DNA of 64,000 bases from Spirochaetales bacterium (GCA_016928415.1 JAFGKU010000097.1:3229-67228); one strand, 5' to 3'. Shown: positions 42,805-50,225, counted from the first letter of the stretch. Translations and numbers: made by a program. The notes: generated from the letters alone by a model not told the origin.

Positions 42805-44013
42805 GTGCTTATAAGAAAATTTGTATTGATTCTACTATATTTATCCATCTTTTGCAAATCTTTTTTAATTGGTGAAAGCTTCCTGGAGCCGGAAATCATG
42901 GGAAAAGCGGCCTGTTCCATAGACGTGGCCACGGGCGAGATCATCTACGCCCGGAGTATGGACAGGATTTTATACCCGGCCAGCATGACAAAACTTATAA
43001 CGGCTGTTCTCCTGGCGGAAAAAGATGAACCGGGAGATATTTTGAACTACAGCCGGGCGGCAAAAAACGTTTACCCCTACAAGCTGGATTTCCCCGTTGG
43101 AGAGCAGGTATCTGCGATGGAGGCCATGTACGGGCTTCTGCTTTTTTCCGGTAATGACATAGCTTACATGATTGCCGAAAACCTGGGCGGTGACATTCCG
43201 GGTTTTGCCCGGATGATGAACGGAAAGGTGAGGGAATGGAACCTGAAGCACACCCGTTTCGTTACCCCCTCGGGCCTTCATGACCCCGGCCACTACAGCT
43301 CCGCCTACGACATGACGATGATCCTGCGCCATGCCGCACGGAATCCCTGGATAGCCTCGGTCATGGAACAGACCAGCCACATCCTCCTCACCGAATCGGG
43401 ACATAAGTATCCCATTACTAACAGGAACAAACTCGTCGGGGTTGACGGCTGCATCGGCGGCAAGACCGGCTGGACACCGGAAGCGGGCCGCTGCCTGGCC
43501 GCCCTCTTTGAACGGAACGGACGCCGGATAGCGGCCGTGGTCATGGATTCGGTGTATGACGCCAAAGACACTGTCGTTTTCAAGGATATGGAGAACCTCA
43601 TTAATTATTCTTATAGTGCCATACGGAAGCAGCTTGTACCTGCGGAAAGAGTCATCAAGCGGGTGCGGGTCAAATACAAGGTAATACCGTTACTCGGCCC
43701 GGAGCGGGAAGCGGTAGTGCCCCTGTACCTGTCCGAACCTGTCATGCTGTATATGACCAGGGATGGCCGGGTGGACCTGGATTTCCGTCCGGATGTATCC
43801 GACCCATGGTCCCTTTCCCGTGAAAAACCGGCCGGTGATCTGCGTGTCATCATGCGGGAGTACGCGCGTTCCTACGCCCTTTACCCCGCCCTCGACGCCG
43901 GTATGCTGTTTAAGGAAAATATTGTCTTCTACATCCTGTTCGGCGGTACCACGTTGTTGATAATATTACTGGCCGTGTTGCTGACTGTGCTGATACGGAG
44001 GAGAAGGGGGTAA
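42805..44013 (+). CDS. D-alanyl-D-alanine carboxypeptidase (peptidase S11) with C-terminal membrane anchor
   Basis: SMTK, SGN and KTG motifs, plus C-terminal TM. Probable GTG start at 42805. Confidence 0.9.
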   Translation: MLIRKFVLILLYLSIFCKSFLIGESFLEPEIMGKAACSIDVATGEIIYARSMDRILYPASMTKLITAVLLAEKDEPGDILNYSRAAKNVYPYKLDFPVGEQVSAMEAMYGLLLFSGNDIAYMIAENLGGDIPGFARMMNGKVREWNLKHTRFVTPSGLHDPGHYSSAYDMTMILRHAARNPWIASVMEQTSHILLTESGHKYPITNRNKLVGVDGCIGGKTGWTPEAGRCLAALFERNGRRIAAVVMDSVYDAKDTVVFKDMENLINYSYSAIRKQLVPAERVIKRVRVKYKVIPLLGPEREAVVPLYLSEPVMLYMTRDGRVDLDFRPDVSDPWSLSREKPAGDLRVIMREYARSYALYPALDAGMLFKENIVFYILFGGTTLLIILLAVLLTVLIRRRRG

Positions 44014-44134
44014 TCACCTTTTCAAGGAGAATCTTCTTGGTGTAATTCTGGATGTAAGTTGAAGACGACTTGATTTCAGCAGCTTTAGGCTGATCGCCTT
44101 TTTTATAGAAGACATCCACTTCGTTTTTATTCAA
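44014..44134 (-). pseudogene. C-terminal remnant of a DUF4143-type nuclease domain
   Basis: NKNEVDVFYKKGDQPKAAEIKSSST matches the EVD..E.K motif of the neighbouring ATPase-nuclease genes. Confidence 0.45.
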
Positions 44135-44210
44135 AACTTAAGTACAACTTAAGATTTGCATAAAAATTAAAATTTATTAAGTCTTTTTCAGTCTGATATG
44201 CCATTACCTT

Positions 44211-45446
44211 TTATGGCAGTACTTCCAGGAACCTGTCTGCTGAGATCACGCACTCGTTTTCAGAAACTTTACGAAAAACCCCTGATGTATGAAGGACTTG
44301 TATTACCGGTATTCCCAAAGAAATTCCGAAGTTCCTGACGGGAGTCGGGATTTTTATATCGGATAACTTGGCTTCAATAATAAGCACAGGTTTTTTGTTC
44401 AGAATCAGAAGAAAATCCGCTTCATTGCCGTCGTAATTACGGATATAGCGCAATTCCGCGTCCCCCAGTCCATTGTCGTTCAGGATTTGACAAAACCGGG
44501 AAAGCATCACACCGATAAAATTTTCAAACCTCTGGCCGGGATTCTCCACATAAATCCAATTGATGAAATAGGCCTTTTTTTCCTTTCTGACGGCCCTGTT
44601 GATCCGTTTGTTCCAGGGATACAGGGACCAGATTAACCATAGCCTTTCCATTTGCGCTAAATGATTGACGACAGTCGGGCTGCTGGTCCCGGCATCTTCA
44701 GCCAATGACTTGACAGACAGGGGATTCCCAACACGGTTGAAAAGAAACATCATTATTCTTTCCGCCGTATCTATTTCATGAATCCGGGTCAGTTCACGTA
44801 AATCTTCGGTCAGGATCAATGAAATGTATTCTTTCTTCCACTTGTTTAAAAACCTGTCTGAATCCCTGGTTAATGGTTCGGGAAAACCTCCGAAATGATA
44901 GAGTTGTTCATAATCACCTGTTGAAAGGGTAATTTGACCCGTCAATCGTGATAATAAATTTTTCCAGGGGTCCTTCCAATCGGATTCGTTTAAAAGCCAT
45001 GCATCCGTAATTTTTTTTCCAAGCAATTCGCCAAGTGAAACCGGAAGCATGTTAAAATGCGTATATCTTCCAACAAGGGAATCACCCGATTTTCTGAAAA
45101 GATTGAGCCGTGCGCTCCCGGTAATAAGAAATCTGCATGCGGGTTCCACGGTATCATACAGGCCTTTTAGAATATCTTTCCATTTTTTTCTTTTATGGAT
45201 CTCATCCATGACCACCAGAAAATCGCTGGTTTTTTTATCGTTGAGAAAAAAAAGAGCATTTTTAATATACTGGCTTCGAATATCGGGATTATCCCAATTG
45301 TAATATCCCCCGGGATTTTTTTTCAGCACTTCCTTTGCATAATATGTCTTGCCGATCTGTCTCGGTCCGGAAAGGAAAATCATTTTGTTGCCGGATAGTT
45401 CCTCAGACCAGATATACTGGTCAATTTGACGTTTTAATAAAGACAT
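44211..45446 (-). CDS. AAA_14-type ATPase with C-terminal DUF4143 (PD-(D/E)xK-like) domain
   Basis: GPRQIGKT Walker A, MDEIH Walker B, ITGSA, GGFPE, FEN and EADF..IEAK. Likely start at 45446. Confidence 0.88.
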   Translation of the reverse strand: MSLLKRQIDQYIWSEELSGNKMIFLSGPRQIGKTYYAKEVLKKNPGGYYNWDNPDIRSQYIKNALFFLNDKKTSDFLVVMDEIHKRKKWKDILKGLYDTVEPACRFLITGSARLNLFRKSGDSLVGRYTHFNMLPVSLGELLGKKITDAWLLNESDWKDPWKNLLSRLTGQITLSTGDYEQLYHFGGFPEPLTRDSDRFLNKWKKEYISLILTEDLRELTRIHEIDTAERIMMFLFNRVGNPLSVKSLAEDAGTSSPTVVNHLAQMERLWLIWSLYPWNKRINRAVRKEKKAYFINWIYVENPGQRFENFIGVMLSRFCQILNDNGLGDAELRYIRNYDGNEADFLLILNKKPVLIIEAKLSDIKIPTPVRNFGISLGIPVIQVLHTSGVFRKVSENECVISADRFLEVLP

Positions 45447-45485
45447 ATTACTAATATATCTCAAAACAGATATCGTGTCAATTAA

Positions 45486-45525
45486 ATATGACTTTAAATT
45501 ACACGCGTGTAAATTAAAGTCATAT
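45486..45525. promoter_or_regulatory. 40-bp near-perfect palindrome, candidate operator
   Basis: ATATGACTTTAAATTACACGCGTGTAAATTAAAGTCATAT, with one mismatched pair. Confidence 0.7.
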
Positions 45526-45550
45526 ATATTATCCACGATTTGAATTCGCC

Positions 45551-45579
45551 TTGACAATTTTAACAAATGTAACTATTAT
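45551..45579 (+). promoter_or_regulatory. Sigma70-like promoter for TA module 1
   Basis: TTGACA-N17-TATTAT. Confidence 0.6.
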
Positions 45580-45592
45580 GTAACCATAATGA

Positions 45593-45892
45593 TTGTATTA
45601 TGAGGTGCAAATGTTCAATATAACGATTCGTAATATTCCTAACGATATAATTGAAAAGATTAAAATTCTTTCCGCCATGGAACGAAGAAGTTTAAACAGT
45701 GAAATTCTCATATTGCTGGAGAGGGGTCTGCTGTATGAAACAAAAAACAGGACCGTTAAATCCGTCACCTCATCCACTCAAATAAGGATCTGGGAAAAAT
45801 TATCCGGTGAGTGGAAAGATGAAAGGAATACCGATGAAATTATCCGGGACATTTATTCAGACCGGAGCCTGGGCAGGGATGTCAATTTATGA
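45593..45892 (+). CDS. FitA/Arc-like ribbon-helix-helix antitoxin
   Basis: ITIRNIP..RRSLNSEI. ATGA overlap with the PIN gene. Confidence 0.82.
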   Translation: MYYEVQMFNITIRNIPNDIIEKIKILSAMERRSLNSEILILLERGLLYETKNRTVKSVTSSTQIRIWEKLSGEWKDERNTDEIIRDIYSDRSLGRDVNL

Positions 45893-46281
45893 TCCTTATT
45901 GATACGGATGTGTGCATTGAAATTCTGCGCGGCAATAGACAAATAATGAATCGAAGAAGGGAATACGGGGGAAATGTGGCCGTATCCTTTATGACGGCAG
46001 GCGAACTGTTTTATGGCGCCGGGAAATCGGGTCACAGTGCCGTTAACCGCCATCTGGTCACTGAATTCCTTCTTGTCACGGAAATCATTGAATCCGATAT
46101 CGACATCATGAGAAGGTTCGGGATTATCAAGGCCGAATTAAAGACGAGGAACGAGATGCTTCCCGACGCGGACATCATCATAGGCGCCACGGCCCTGGAA
46201 AAATGTGAAAAATTGATTACGGGAAATACAGGGCATTTCAACCGTATTCCCGGTTTAAAAGTAGAGAACTGGATCAGGTGA
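45889..46281 (+). CDS. vapC: VapC-type PIN-domain toxin
   Basis: LIDTDV, GEL, DADIIIGATA and TGNTGHF. Confidence 0.88.
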   Translation: MILIDTDVCIEILRGNRQIMNRRREYGGNVAVSFMTAGELFYGAGKSGHSAVNRHLVTEFLLVTEIIESDIDIMRRFGIIKAELKTRNEMLPDADIIIGATALEKCEKLITGNTGHFNRIPGLKVENWIR

Positions 46282-46298
46282 CGGGTTTAAACCCATTT

Positions 46299-47693
46299 TT
46301 ATTTGTCCCCGATTAATATATCACCTTCAAATAAAAATACATTATCCGGTTTTGCCAATTCCATCATTTGCTTTGTAAACCCGGATTTGCTGAAAAGACA
46401 AAAATATTCCGATCGCCTTTCCTTCCCCCATTCCACATGTTCTGCCTTTTCTCTCAATTTTCGATAGATATCCGTTCCCATGGGCTTTTTTGACCATTTA
46501 GCCTCCCCGAATATTATGGCATTTGTTTTTCTGTTGATTCCCACCACATCAATTTCTTCATTCCTGTCCCACCAGCCGCCGACTTCAGCAAATTCCGGAA
46601 AGGAGGGATTGTATGAATTGAAGCTCTTGATTGTTTCGCGGGCTATTTTTTCATACGCGGTCCCGTTCAATACGGGCAGGTTTTCTTTCAACATACCCAG
46701 AACATCATTTATCCGGCCCTGCTCAAGCAATGAACGGTTCCTGAATACAAACCTGAACCAGAAAGCAAAAAAATTATCACTAAAGACATAGAGACCCTTC
46801 CTGCTTTTTTCGGGTATTTTTTCCGTAACGGGTATTTTTTTTTCAGTTATATGCAGACTGTCCAGGATTGAAAGATAGCGTGACACGGTACCTTTTTCCA
46901 AACCGCTCTCATTTATAATTTCCGATAACTTATGTTTTCCCAGGGAAATGGCCTCAAGAATAACAAAATAGTTTCTGGGCTCCTTCAATTCTTCACGAAG
47001 CAGGAAATCCACTTCGGCATATAGGGGCTCTCCTTTTGTGAAGATACTGTTTTTAACGGAGTTAATGTAATTTTTACCGGCAAACTGGTTTAAATAAAGC
47101 GGAGTCCCCCCCACGGAACTGTATATGGAAACAGTTTCCTCGAGAGATTTTTCAGGAAACATGGTTTTTACGGATTTAAAAGAGAAAGGCTTAACCAGTA
47201 ATTGTCCCGTCCGCCTTCCATACAATGGGGCTTTATGATGGAGAACGGTTTTTTCCATCATTGAAATACTGGAACCAAGCAGTATAAGAAAAACGGATGA
47301 TGATTTAAGATGAAGATCCCAAATTTTTTGAAACGCCGTTGGAATGGAGGGATCTGTTTCCGCCAAATAAGGAAATTCATCTATAATGACAAGCAGCTTT
47401 TCATTTCTGGCTGAAATATATTTAAAAGCCTGTTCCCAGTCCCGAAAGCCGCTTTCCGGTATAAATTCATCCTGATAGTATGCGGCTATGCTTTCCGAAA
47501 ATTTCAGTACCTGCTTTTGGGGAGTGATCATTTCGCTGAGATAATAAATATGGGGTTTATCCATGCAAAATTTCAATGAAAGCTCGGTTTTTCCCACCCT
47601 TCTTTTTCCGTAAAGGATAATAAGCTGGGCTCCCTTTTGATTCCACTTTTTGTCGAGAAAATCAAGTTCTTCTTCCCTGTTGACAAATTTCAT
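46299..47693 (-). CDS. Archaeal-type ATPase with C-terminal DUF234 nuclease-like domain
   Basis: FVNREEEL, YGKRRVGKT, IIDEFPYL, GRRTG, GGTP, FSDNFFAFWF and GGWWDRNEEIDVV..GEAKW. Confidence 0.88.
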   Translation of the reverse strand: MKFVNREEELDFLDKKWNQKGAQLIILYGKRRVGKTELSLKFCMDKPHIYYLSEMITPQKQVLKFSESIAAYYQDEFIPESGFRDWEQAFKYISARNEKLLVIIDEFPYLAETDPSIPTAFQKIWDLHLKSSSVFLILLGSSISMMEKTVLHHKAPLYGRRTGQLLVKPFSFKSVKTMFPEKSLEETVSIYSSVGGTPLYLNQFAGKNYINSVKNSIFTKGEPLYAEVDFLLREELKEPRNYFVILEAISLGKHKLSEIINESGLEKGTVSRYLSILDSLHITEKKIPVTEKIPEKSRKGLYVFSDNFFAFWFRFVFRNRSLLEQGRINDVLGMLKENLPVLNGTAYEKIARETIKSFNSYNPSFPEFAEVGGWWDRNEEIDVVGINRKTNAIIFGEAKWSKKPMGTDIYRKLREKAEHVEWGKERRSEYFCLFSKSGFTKQMMELAKPDNVFLFEGDILIGDK

Positions 47694-47703
47694 TATTTTC
47701 TCC

Positions 47704-47741
47704 TTAGTTTAATCAAGATTAGTCTAATCTATTTTAGACTA
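47704..47741. promoter_or_regulatory. Overlapping palindromes upstream of the DUF234 ATPase
   Basis: AGATTAG-T-CTAATCT (47716-47730) and TAGTCTAA-N6-TTAGACTA (47720-47741). Confidence 0.55.
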
Positions 47742-47781
47742 TTTATCAATCCCGGGAATATGGGAATATATTAATTTTGAC

Positions 47782-48984
47782 TTATACAAGACCGCTCAGG
47801 AAAATATCCAGTGACACGAGTTGGACATCCCTGGTGACTACCCGCCTGTCATAATTCTTAATAACCTGATAACAGAACGGAATACCCAGTTTCTCCTTAA
47901 AGTAAATTAAATGCCGGGACGGTTTATCATCGGACATTTTAACCTCAACCGCGAACCACGGTTTCCCTTTCCAGGTAACCAGAAAATCGACCTCCCTTCC
48001 CTCCGTATCCCTGATATAATAAAGCATGACTTCGTGGCCATAGGCATCCACAAGGAAATGGCACATTTTAAGCAGGTGACCGGCGACCATATTCTCCAGT
48101 TTTGCCCCTTCGGATTCAATTTCCGACCAGTCCCATAAATACAGCTTGGCTTCCTTTTTAAGGGATTTTATCCTTGTATTATTAAACGGATACACCCTGT
48201 AGCTGTAATACAGGTTTTCAAAAACATTGAGCCACAAAACCACCGATTTATGGGTGACTTCCAGGTCTTCCCGAAGTGCATTTAACGATAACAGTGAACC
48301 GGCACGGGAAGGCAGCATATCACTCAATATTTCCATGGAACTTAAGTCCCTGATGTGCGTTAGGTCCCGTATATCTTCACGGAACAGCAGTTGTTTCCGG
48401 GCATTATGCCATGGCCTACACACAGGACACTGAATCGCAGTAGCGATTCCTTGACTCCATTCACGTTCATCGGCCTTTAAATAAGGTTCCGGGAAACCGC
48501 CGTATGTCATGAGCCGGTCATTAACATCGTTAGACGGAACTTCCTTGGGAAAAACAACCCCTTTCCTGGTTTAATCGTGTTATTTAAATTATTGAGTTCC
48601 GCATAACTGAAAGGATGGAGACGGTAATAATGGTACCGTCCGAAAAGTGAGTCGCCCCCCTTTTTATACATATCGAGCCTGGCGCTGCCCGTAATGAGGA
48701 AATTATGGTATTCCTTTTTAACGTCATATTCGCCTTTTATAAAAGATTTCCACCGGGAGTATTTATGGATTTCATCAAGAATGACGATTTTATTTTCAGC
48801 CGGCCATGCCGCCTTTAATATATTCTTCCTGTGTTCACGGTTGTCCCAGTTAAAGTAGGAAGCCTTTTTTCCCCCCTATCATTCTGGAAAACGTTGTTTT
48901 ACCGACCTGGCGCGGACCTCCGATAAATACCATTTTCTGCTTTAGATCCGAGGTAATATTGGATGTTAAATAGCGTGTCTTCAT
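47782..48984 (-). pseudogene. AAA_14-DUF4143 ATPase pseudogene (two frameshifts and a 39-bp insertion)
   Basis: ATG 48984 MKTRYL..GGPRQVGKT, then a +1 shift at the G6A6 run (about 48865-48876), then YFNWD..LDEIH..ITGSARLD..GRYH. A second shift occurs near 48560, and track ORF 47782..48510 carries the insert. Confidence 0.88.
48418..48456. other. 39-bp in-frame insertion with an internal hairpin
   Basis: ACACACAGGACACTGAATCGCAGTAGCGATTCCTTGACT. CT is repeated at both ends and the stem is GAATCGC/GCGATTC. Confidence 0.75.
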
Positions 48985-48992
48985 ATCTTGAA

Positions 48993-49046
48993 TTTTACCC
49001 TATAGGGTAAAAAAATGGCAAGAATTTTACCCTCATGGGTAAAATT
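48993..49046. promoter_or_regulatory. Tandem palindromes upstream of the AAA_14 pseudogene
   Basis: TTTTACCCTATAGGGTAAAA (48993-49012) and AATTTTACCC-TCAT-GGGTAAAATT (49023-49046). Confidence 0.72.
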
Positions 49047-49250
49047 TCGGAGTAAATTTAATGGAAATAGGATTGAATTTACCATATTTCTCTGGATTGC
49101 TGTTAAAAATCAGCTTTTCTTTCATTTTTCAGGTTTTTTTGTTCAAATACGCTTCCCTGCCTAAATCCCAAAAAAAGTGTCACTTATGTGGATTTTTTTT
49201 GTTTAAGTTATATAGTTAGAAGAAAGGAAATTATGATTATGGAGAGAAAT

Positions 49251-50225
49251 ATGAGCAAAACGAAGATATTTTTTTCAATACTGGTTTTATTTTTATTGTG
49301 TTCGACGGGTTTGTTTGCAATCGATTATATAGTCAGAATAGAAGCTAATGTAACAGATGCTGATGTTTATATTGATGGCAAATTTGTAGGACAGACCCCT
49401 ATCTCACTCAGTTTAAGTAGAGGCGCACATAATTTAAGACTCTCAAAAGCCGGATTCCAGGATTATAATGTAAGAATTAATGTTACCAGGAAAACTTCTT
49501 ATAAGTATAATATGAAAAAATCAGGCGAAGCTATTAATACACCGGTTCCCATTGAACCGACAAGCGGAGTTTTTACACAGTTTAAGTTAAGAATTGATGC
49601 AAATATCAGAGGTGCTACTGTATTTATTGACAATGTCCAAAGGGGCAGAACACCCTTTACAATGCTCATTCCGGTAGGGACATATAACCTGCGTGTAACG
49701 GCACCGGGCTATACGGATTATAATGAGAGGATTGCGATTTCTGCAGATTCAAATTTTAATATTACACTAGAAGAAAGCGTCAAATATTACACTTTGCAGG
49801 TGACGGCGAATGTAAAGGGTGCCCGACTTTATATTAACGGTCATGATTCTGGTAAGACACCTGTATCTCTTAATCTTGCAGCAGGGGATTACCAGATCAG
49901 GGTAAGCTATAAAAATTTTGCGGATTTTGAACAGGTTATCCGACTTGACCATGATATGAGGATCAATGCCGAGTTGCGGTCCTCACTGGCTCAACTGAAA
50001 ATAATCATACCAAAAGACATATTGGATAATCGGAAGAATGCCATAAGGCAGGTTTACATTTACATCGACGGTAAACGGTATGTCAATAAACTCGACTTTG
50101 ACTTAGAGAGTGGTGTACACAAAATACGCATCCTTTCCGGCGGTTTATCCGTTGAAGCATCTTTCAATTTTGAAGGGGGACAGGTTTATAAGATAACACC
50201 ACGTCTGACATTAGATGTGGAGTAA
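49251..50225 (+). CDS. PEGA-domain exported protein
   Basis: Signal peptide and repeated ANV.GA.V.I.G...G.TP PEGA units. Confidence 0.85.
   Translation: MSKTKIFFSILVLFLLCSTGLFAIDYIVRIEANVTDADVYIDGKFVGQTPISLSLSRGAHNLRLSKAGFQDYNVRINVTRKTSYKYNMKKSGEAINTPVPIEPTSGVFTQFKLRIDANIRGATVFIDNVQRGRTPFTMLIPVGTYNLRVTAPGYTDYNERIAISADSNFNITLEESVKYYTLQVTANVKGARLYINGHDSGKTPVSLNLAAGDYQIRVSYKNFADFEQVIRLDHDMRINAELRSSLAQLKIIIPKDILDNRKNAIRQVYIYIDGKRYVNKLDFDLESGVHKIRILSGGLSVEASFNFEGGQVYKITPRLTLDVE

Follow-up and report, generated by a model that had tools for sequence, protein, structure and literature searches.

Three ATPase-nuclease genes of a Spirochaetales bacterium

The window analysed here is a stretch of 64,000 nucleotides (nt) (JAFGKU010000097.1:3229-67228) within the 5.1-Mb, 243-contig assembly of a Spirochaetales bacterium (GCA_016928415.1). 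It contains three neighbouring minus-strand genes, g1, g2 and g3, of two ATPase-nuclease families (AAA_14+DUF4143 and ATPase_2+DUF234), each preceded by a repeated or palindromic DNA element that overlaps its promoter and may be its private operator. The assembly has 17 matches to DUF4143 and one to DUF234; a related-locus search of genome contigs with g1 returned two loci only. The genes, their upstream elements and their promoters, the last located by sigma-70 consensus scans, are listed below, with positions counted from the first letter of the window.

44211-45446, minus strand: g1, 411 amino acids (aa); AAA+ ATPase, winged helix and PD-(D/E)xK nuclease (Pfam AAA_14+DUF4143; PADLOC PDC-S01)
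45453-45481, minus strand: predicted g1 promoter, TTGACA-17-TATATT, 11/12 matches, with 6 nt between the -10 hexamer and the ATG
45486-45525: g1 palindrome of 40 base pairs (bp), halves ATATGACTTTAAATTACACG and CGTGTAAATTAAAGTCATAT, with one mismatched pair; 39 nt from ATG 45446
45472-45539: predicted g1 operator array, symmetric, 68 bp; the 40-bp palindrome plus one extra half-site per side
46299-47693, minus strand: g2, 464 aa; ATPase_2, winged helix and DUF234 (PD-(D/E)xK); PADLOC PDC-S27
47741-47697, minus strand: g2 repeat array, three 15-bp direct repeats TAGTCTAAAATAGAT, TAGACTAATCTTGAT and TAAACTAAGGAGAAA (TAGnCTAA...), with short palindromes inside
TTGATA (47749)-17-TAGACT (47721), minus strand: predicted g2 promoter; the repeat array covers its spacer and -10 hexamer
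47782-48984, minus strand: g3, a second AAA_14+DUF4143 gene, readable only across three frames
48990-49044: predicted g3 operator array, two 23-nt boxes exactly 32 bp apart, each enclosing a 20-bp palindrome TTTTACCC-N4-GGGTAAAA
TTGCCA-18-TAAAAT, -35 hexamer at 49021-49016, minus strand: predicted g3 promoter; the -35 hexamer lies between the boxes and the proximal box covers the -10 hexamer, which ends 7 nt before the ATG

The g1 product matches AAA_14 (E 5e-26), DUF4143 (E 1e-16) and the PADLOC PDC-S01 model PDLC04790 (E 2.6e-50), which places it in PDC-S01. Its Walker A (GPRQIGKT) and Walker B (MDEIH) motifs are both intact, as is the PD-(D/E)xK motif, whose residues E308, D344 and E358-x-K360 are conserved in the alignment of homologues. 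The g2 product matches ATPase_2 (E 1.8e-27), DUF234 (E 1.8e-22) and the PADLOC PDC-S27 model PDLC04984 (E 4e-48), placing it in PDC-S27; it also has a weak HTH_5 match at residues 245-277 and weakly matches a Walker-type ATPase of known structure (PDB 2QEN, E 1e-6). An earlier note on this DNA had placed a further ATPase-nuclease gene at ATG 48984, which is right as to family, the pieces of g3 matching AAA_14 (E 4e-18) and DUF4143 (E 6e-25), but not as to integrity, for g3 contains at least two frameshifts, each in a homopolymer run (T6C6 near 48866 and C4T3 near 48556). Either g3 is a pseudogene in recent decay or the frameshifts are assembly errors; its promoter and both operator boxes are intact despite them.

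A search of the PDB with the g1 sequence found no relative with a solved structure. An AlphaFold2 model built on a 31-sequence alignment (predicted local distance difference test score, pLDDT, 90; predicted template modelling score, pTM, 0.91) divides the g1 protein into an AAA+ domain (residues 1-145), a helical lid (154-220), a winged helix (225-294), with its recognition helix at 254-268, and a nuclease (303-411), so that the central helix-turn-helix-like region proposed in the earlier note is modelled with confidence as a winged helix in the middle of the protein. The best Foldseek matches of the model are Orc1/Cdc6 proteins on origin DNA (2v1u_A, E 2.8e-7; 2qby_B, E 6e-7), followed by RuvB and RFC. 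The order of AAA+ domain and winged helix is the same in g1 as in Orc1/Cdc6, a resemblance of fold only at 12-14% sequence identity.

Repeated elements on the promoters of g1, g2 and g3

The three elements lie before ATGs 45446, 47693 and 48984, where the earlier note had located them; its description of them as three palindromes of unrelated sequence stands in part. When inverted and direct repeats were scored against a control set consisting of 1041 upstream regions of other genes, the g1 palindrome had an inverted-repeat score of 18, which is reached by three of the 1041 controls, one of them a paralogue. Like-oriented half-sites of the g1 array are 32 bp apart (CGTGTCAATT at 45474 and CGTGTAAATT at 45506; AAATTACACG at 45496 and ATTATCCACG at 45528), and the promoter-proximal half-site overlaps the -35 hexamer. 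The g3 palindromes (TTTTACCCTATAGGGTAAAA at 48993-49012 and TTTTACCCTCATGGGTAAAA at 49025-49044) likewise exceed the controls, with a period-32 score of 15.5 that 0.2% of controls reach. At g2, in contrast, the sequences noted as palindromic (AGATTAG/CTAATCT and TAGTCTAA-N6-TTAGACTA, at 47716-47741) score only 8, within the range of the controls, 11.7% of which reach 8; the direct-repeat score is 10.5 at period 15, a value attained by none of the 1041 controls at period 15/16 and by 4.5% at any period. Three 15-bp direct repeats describe the g2 element better than a palindrome does. As for the three sequences being unrelated, g1 and g3 have in common a TTTAC...GTAAA element that is enriched in the family (33/90 upstream regions versus 4/80 in controls).

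All three elements overlap near-consensus sigma-70-like promoters. No Shine-Dalgarno sequence was found before g1 or g3, and since their -10 hexamers are 6-7 nt from the ATG, leaderless mRNAs are probable for both. Leaderless-type geometry was found in 33% of 103 family genes versus 6% of control genes, and also in the g1 orthologues L022 and L023. No second copy of any g1, g2 or g3 box was found in the 5.1-Mb assembly, and no trans targets of the boxes were found elsewhere in the genome at two or fewer mismatches.

Terminators and known RNA elements were considered as identities for these sequences and rejected: there is no terminator-like site and no Rfam match at any of the elements, which are located on the -35 and -10 hexamers or upstream of them.

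Occurrence of phased repeats in the two families

The earlier note had ascribed such an element to every ATPase-nuclease gene. Within the genome, inverted-repeat scores of at least 8 were found upstream of 10 of 15 paralogues (11.7% of controls) and scores of at least 10 upstream of seven of them (4.8% of the 1041 controls; binomial P 2.7e-6), while two paralogues without palindromes (C59 and C221) carry 33-bp direct repeats instead; the generalization holds for most of the paralogues but not for all. Relatives from the same order have a perfect 29+29-nt palindrome (L033) or one of 15+15 (L030), and the orthologous set L041-L048 has two tandem 13-N4-13 palindromes, in which substitutions among close orthologues are symmetric in the two arms (CTGG..CCAG versus CGGG..CCCG). 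Among metagenomic homologues with 30-40% identity, 43 of 74 upstream regions beat 95% of shuffles.

When 103 DUF4143-family upstream regions were scanned for direct repeats with periods between 12 and 60 bp, a single spike appeared, at exactly 32 bp, in 45 of the 103 (44%); a period of 33 bp was found in four, every other period in none or one, and the controls stood at about 1%. Typically box 1 extends from -65 to -34 and box 2 from -33 to -2, so that the pair covers the core promoter. Among DUF234-type genes, 11 of 13 have upstream repeats with a period of 15-16 bp, in up to five copies (L146).

Phased or palindromic sequences were also seen upstream of three genes that, judged from their translated sequences, do not look like members of the ATPase-nuclease family. 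An amidase-like gene (G000:C18, 1926-3956, minus strand) is preceded by two TTACCCGGGTAA palindromes that are 28 bp apart, flank a TTGACA and resemble the TTTTACCC...GGGTAAAA boxes of g3. Copies phased at 32-33 bp precede a chemoreceptor-like gene (G000:C173, upstream of 18053; three copies of TTTTTCATGACAGGAAC) and an ABC ATPase gene (G000:C4, upstream of 3370; two copies of CGTGTATTTGAGCTTGTA).

Conservation of the g1 site and its relation to the protein

The g1 orthologue group consists of 11 members, including L022, L023 and L161-L168, with 50-56% protein identity, and the orthologues are found in eight different neighbourhoods. A palindrome centred on CG/CG is located 46-62 nt before the ATG in 10 of the 11 members, and its flanks are lineage-specific, as illustrated by the following half-sites.

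g1: TTTAATTTACACG/CG
L168: TTTAATTTGCACG/CG
L162: TTTAATATTATCG/CG, with perfect 25-nt arms
L164: TTTCATATTCTCG/CG
L022: CCCATTTCTCG/CG

Site sequences are clade-specific, and at about 50% protein identity they are still conserved although the neighbouring genes and the other flanking DNA differ. Homologues lacking upstream palindromes were named in the earlier note as one observation that would overturn its proposal; instead, paralogues, same-order relatives, metagenomic homologues and 10 of the 11 g1 orthologues carry repeats or palindromes on their promoters.

Co-variation of protein and operator, which the earlier note had asked for as a check, is apparent at the level of clades. Within the g1 group, half-sites are common to proteins whose recognition helices resemble each other (the pairs g1/P0025 and P0023/P0007), although overall identity is only 50%. 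The helix class [SA]xDT[VIA]xRW is associated with CGTAAA/TTTACG in 10 of 11 cases versus 6 of 90 (P 4e-9), and the helix class H[ED][ST][VA]ERW with CTCATGAG in 9 of 14 versus 3 of 87. The associations show that the sites have been retained at divergences at which neutral intergenic DNA would be scrambled.

The FitA/PIN pair between g1 and g2

The g1 palindrome is located in a divergent intergenic region that g1 shares with a ribbon-helix-helix antitoxin gene. The antitoxin gene and the toxin gene that follows it are context to the three ATPase-nuclease units and lie outside them.

45612-45892, plus strand: FitA-like ribbon-helix-helix antitoxin, divergent from g1
45889-46281, plus strand: PIN toxin
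TTGACA 45551-17-TATTAT 45579, plus strand: near-consensus promoter of the FitA/PIN pair's own
45566-45599: inverted repeat with 15-nt arms over the -10 hexamer of the FitA/PIN promoter

The inverted repeat at 45566-45599 is probably the operator of the FitA/PIN pair itself. The g1 palindrome was also considered as an operator of the pair and rejected: the palindrome is retained in homologues that lack the pair, and the antitoxin gene comes with an inverted repeat of its own. No FitA gene was found upstream of the relatives in the g1 group, and only one of them has a FitA gene nearby at all, on the downstream side; the absence of an upstream FitA gene from these relatives removes the FitA/PIN pair as owner of the g1 palindrome. 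Toxin-antitoxin modules (HEPN/NTase, PIN/PhdYeFM and FitA-like) are also found beside the g1 orthologues L161, L163 and L166.

Proposed autorepression and its alternatives

The most economical reading is that g1, g2 and g3 are self-contained cassettes, each of which may be repressed by its own product through the winged helix; from the sequence comparisons and the structural model, we put the probability of this reading at about 0.7. What the analysis shows directly is the sites, their phasing and promoter overlap, that they occur once in the genome and stay with the gene in unrelated contexts, and how the domains are arranged. As in autoregulated repressors, the repeated or palindromic sites overlap the gene's own core promoter, and they are kept with the gene from one context to another while their sequence shifts with the protein lineage. 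The earlier note's proposal of autoregulatory, self-contained units that act through a co-evolving operator gains support from the promoter overlap, the uniqueness and clade specificity of the sites, and the modelled winged helix. The window would hold three such units side by side.

Each gene encodes an ATPase of the AAA+ type together with a winged helix and a PD-(D/E)xK nuclease, and would carry its own in-phase recognition sites on a near-consensus sigma-70 promoter. Acting as a dimer or a larger, ATP-dependent assembly, the protein would use its winged helix to read two boxes on one face of the DNA, spaced at 32 bp in the family of g1 and g3 and as 15-16-bp units in the family of g2. The bound protein would cover the promoter from -35 to +1 and repress its own transcription, thereby keeping a potentially harmful nuclease at a low, buffered level, and the strong, often leaderless promoter would permit a fast burst of expression once the repressor is drawn away or its nucleotide state changes. 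Divergence of the sites together with the protein would allow paralogues in one cell, of which there are at least 15 here, to avoid cross-regulation.

Several observations weigh against this reading. By the scores used, about a third to a half of family members have no strong repeat. The 40-bp palindrome of g1 is upstream of the -35 hexamer (centre at about -60), a position used by activators too. The clade-level associations of helix and box are not phylogenetically independent, and in a pairwise, domain-resolved co-variation test (Mantel-style), which used a crude box-similarity score, box similarity was at background below 60% protein identity, the correlation specific to the winged helix was tiny (rho 0.046), and identity of the recognition helix did not predict box similarity. 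The boxes of g3, C191 and L059 are alike (TTTACCC/TATAGG) but belong to proteins with dissimilar helices, and are counter-examples to a simple code.

The earlier note's own alternative was that the elements are sites of self-recognition or cleavage. In its fuller form, the arrays would be mainly an assembly or loading platform, or a mark of 'self', for an Orc1-like ATP-dependent oligomer whose nuclease docks, recognizes self or cleaves there, with gene regulation as a side effect. The best fold matches being Orc1/Cdc6 on origin DNA, the phased multi-site arrays typical of oligomer assembly and the intact catalytic residues of the nuclease all speak for such a platform, which we nevertheless consider unlikely: the boxes consistently cover -35, -10 and +1 and are not scattered about the gene, the presence of a single array for each gene and at least 15 different arrays per genome argues against origin-like roles, and cutting its own promoter would be self-destructive. 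Quite improbable is the suggestion that the repeats are ends or attachment sites of mobile single-gene cassettes, recognized by the protein for movement. The unrelated neighbourhoods, often beside toxin-antitoxin modules, and the many paralogues on short contigs are what such cassettes might leave, but no copy of a box was found downstream of g1, g2 or g3, no direct or inverted repeats bracket the genes in 43900-49300, and the boxes are on the promoter side only, phased with the promoter hexamers.

Some other regulator might bind the elements, either the FitA/PIN pair in the case of the g1 palindrome, for which it is the sole other candidate encoded in cis, or a host factor more generally. The divergent intergenic region common to g1 and the antitoxin gene, and the recurrence of TTTAC/GTAAA-type elements among different paralogues, lend themselves to this explanation; it becomes very improbable when set against the 10 of 11 orthologues that keep the palindrome, none with an upstream FitA gene, the separate inverted repeat that the antitoxin gene has on its own -10 hexamer, and the fact that the boxes are gene-specific, occur once in the genome and follow the ATPase clade from phylum to phylum. 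Chance or composition, by which AT-rich intergenic DNA would yield functionless palindromes, is scarcely credible. The upstream regions of the family are more AT-rich than those of the controls (39% versus 47% GC), and the g2 palindrome taken alone is within the control range (11.7%), but a single sharp peak at period 32 (45/103) cannot stem from composition, the shuffle and control-gene tests go against it, and the sites are conserved at about 50% protein identity.

A bolder interpretation, which is doubtful at present, would make PDC-S01 and PDC-S27 a vast, diversified class of sequence-specific Orc1-like ATPase-nucleases with a private code of about 13 bp per half-site. The promoter array would be the true high-affinity ligand and would serve both as operator and as a platform that holds the ATP-dependent oligomer inactive, until invading DNA titrates or remodels it and so releases active nuclease and de-represses the gene at once. 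If this were true, the arrays would for the first time allow the DNA specificity of uncharacterized proteins, tens of thousands of them, to be read directly.

On the autorepression reading, the conserved, phased, gene-specific promoter sites predict the DNA ligands of these proteins, and the privacy of the sites would explain the coexistence of many paralogues (at least 15 here) without cross-talk. Assays in which a foreign promoter drives these genes, or in which the arrays are absent, may overlook their biology. Pairs of protein and site over thousands of homologues could be mined as a natural table of winged-helix specificities.

Other features of the window and the genome

An intact AAA_14/DUF4143 paralogue of 373 aa is located on the same contig just beyond the right end of the window (G000:C166:67907-68884); upstream of it are TAGTCttGACT at the -35 position and TATAAT 7 nt before the ATG. 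Many of the DUF4143 paralogues are found at the ends of contigs or on contigs of only 2.9-9.8 kb (C6, C27, C38, C191, C14 and C221, with two copies on C38), which suggests that they are located in strain-variable or hard-to-assemble regions. Between the g3 stop codon and the g2 promoter is a perfect tandem GGGAATAT GGGAATAT at 47754-47769. Between the convergent PIN and g2 genes, a palindrome GGGTTTAAACCC at 46284-46295 is followed by a T-run and is probably a terminator common to both genes.

Comparison with known systems

The families to which the three genes belong are abundant and have carried the label 'function unknown' from 2012 at the latest: DUF4143/COG1373 (PDC-S01) reportedly ranks fourth among 'defence' gene types in prokaryotes by frequency, and DUF234/COG1672 (PDC-S27) is likewise very frequent (PMC3424549, PMC12988326). 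As in those families, to which g1 and g3 (PDC-S01) and g2 (PDC-S27) belong by their matches, the genes are solitary and the ATPase is fused to a PD-(D/E)xK domain (PMC3424549; PMC12988326). In PADLOC both are single-gene 'phage defence candidates', PDC-S01 being a 'guilt by embedding' candidate. In the sole published challenge, one representative each of PDC-S01 and PDC-S27 gave no protection against T4, T5 or T7, that of PDC-S01 in E. coli B (bioRxiv 10.1101/2024.09.26.614923). No description of an operator array, phasing or autoregulation was found for the PDC-S01 and PDC-S27 families in the papers searched.

In Orc1/Cdc6, as here, an AAA+ domain is followed by a winged helix and repeated recognition boxes adjoin the protein's own gene. 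Proteins of the g1 type differ in having an additional C-terminal PD-(D/E)xK nuclease domain, in numbering at least 15 paralogues per genome, each with its own boxes, rather than one or a few copies, and in that the boxes are on promoter hexamers and not at a replication origin.

PutA, BirA and NadR are fusions of enzyme and repressor that autoregulate at their own promoters. They have in common with the proteins considered here that a single polypeptide has DNA-binding and catalytic domains and, as proposed here, represses its own promoter; they differ in being enzymes of metabolism that bind in response to a substrate or cofactor, whereas here an ATPase is joined to a nuclease and the sites are phased arrays that diversify between paralogues. 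In type II toxin-antitoxin operators and the C-protein boxes of restriction-modification systems, palindromic operators on a strong promoter restrain a harmful nuclease. The tight, self-contained control and the private specificity that prevents cross-talk of related modules in one cell are alike; there, a separate small protein acts as the regulator, whereas here that role would fall to a domain of the effector itself, with sites phased at 32 bp or 15-16 bp. Plasmid Rep proteins have iterons, which the head-to-tail 15-16-bp repeats of the g2 family, up to five in number (L146) and beside the gene of their presumed binder, resemble; the g2-family loci differ in being chromosomal, in having no replicon features and in that the repeats overlap the gene's own promoter. 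The design, probably unpublished, is of a known kind, the autoregulated module, but with the effector's own domain as the regulator.

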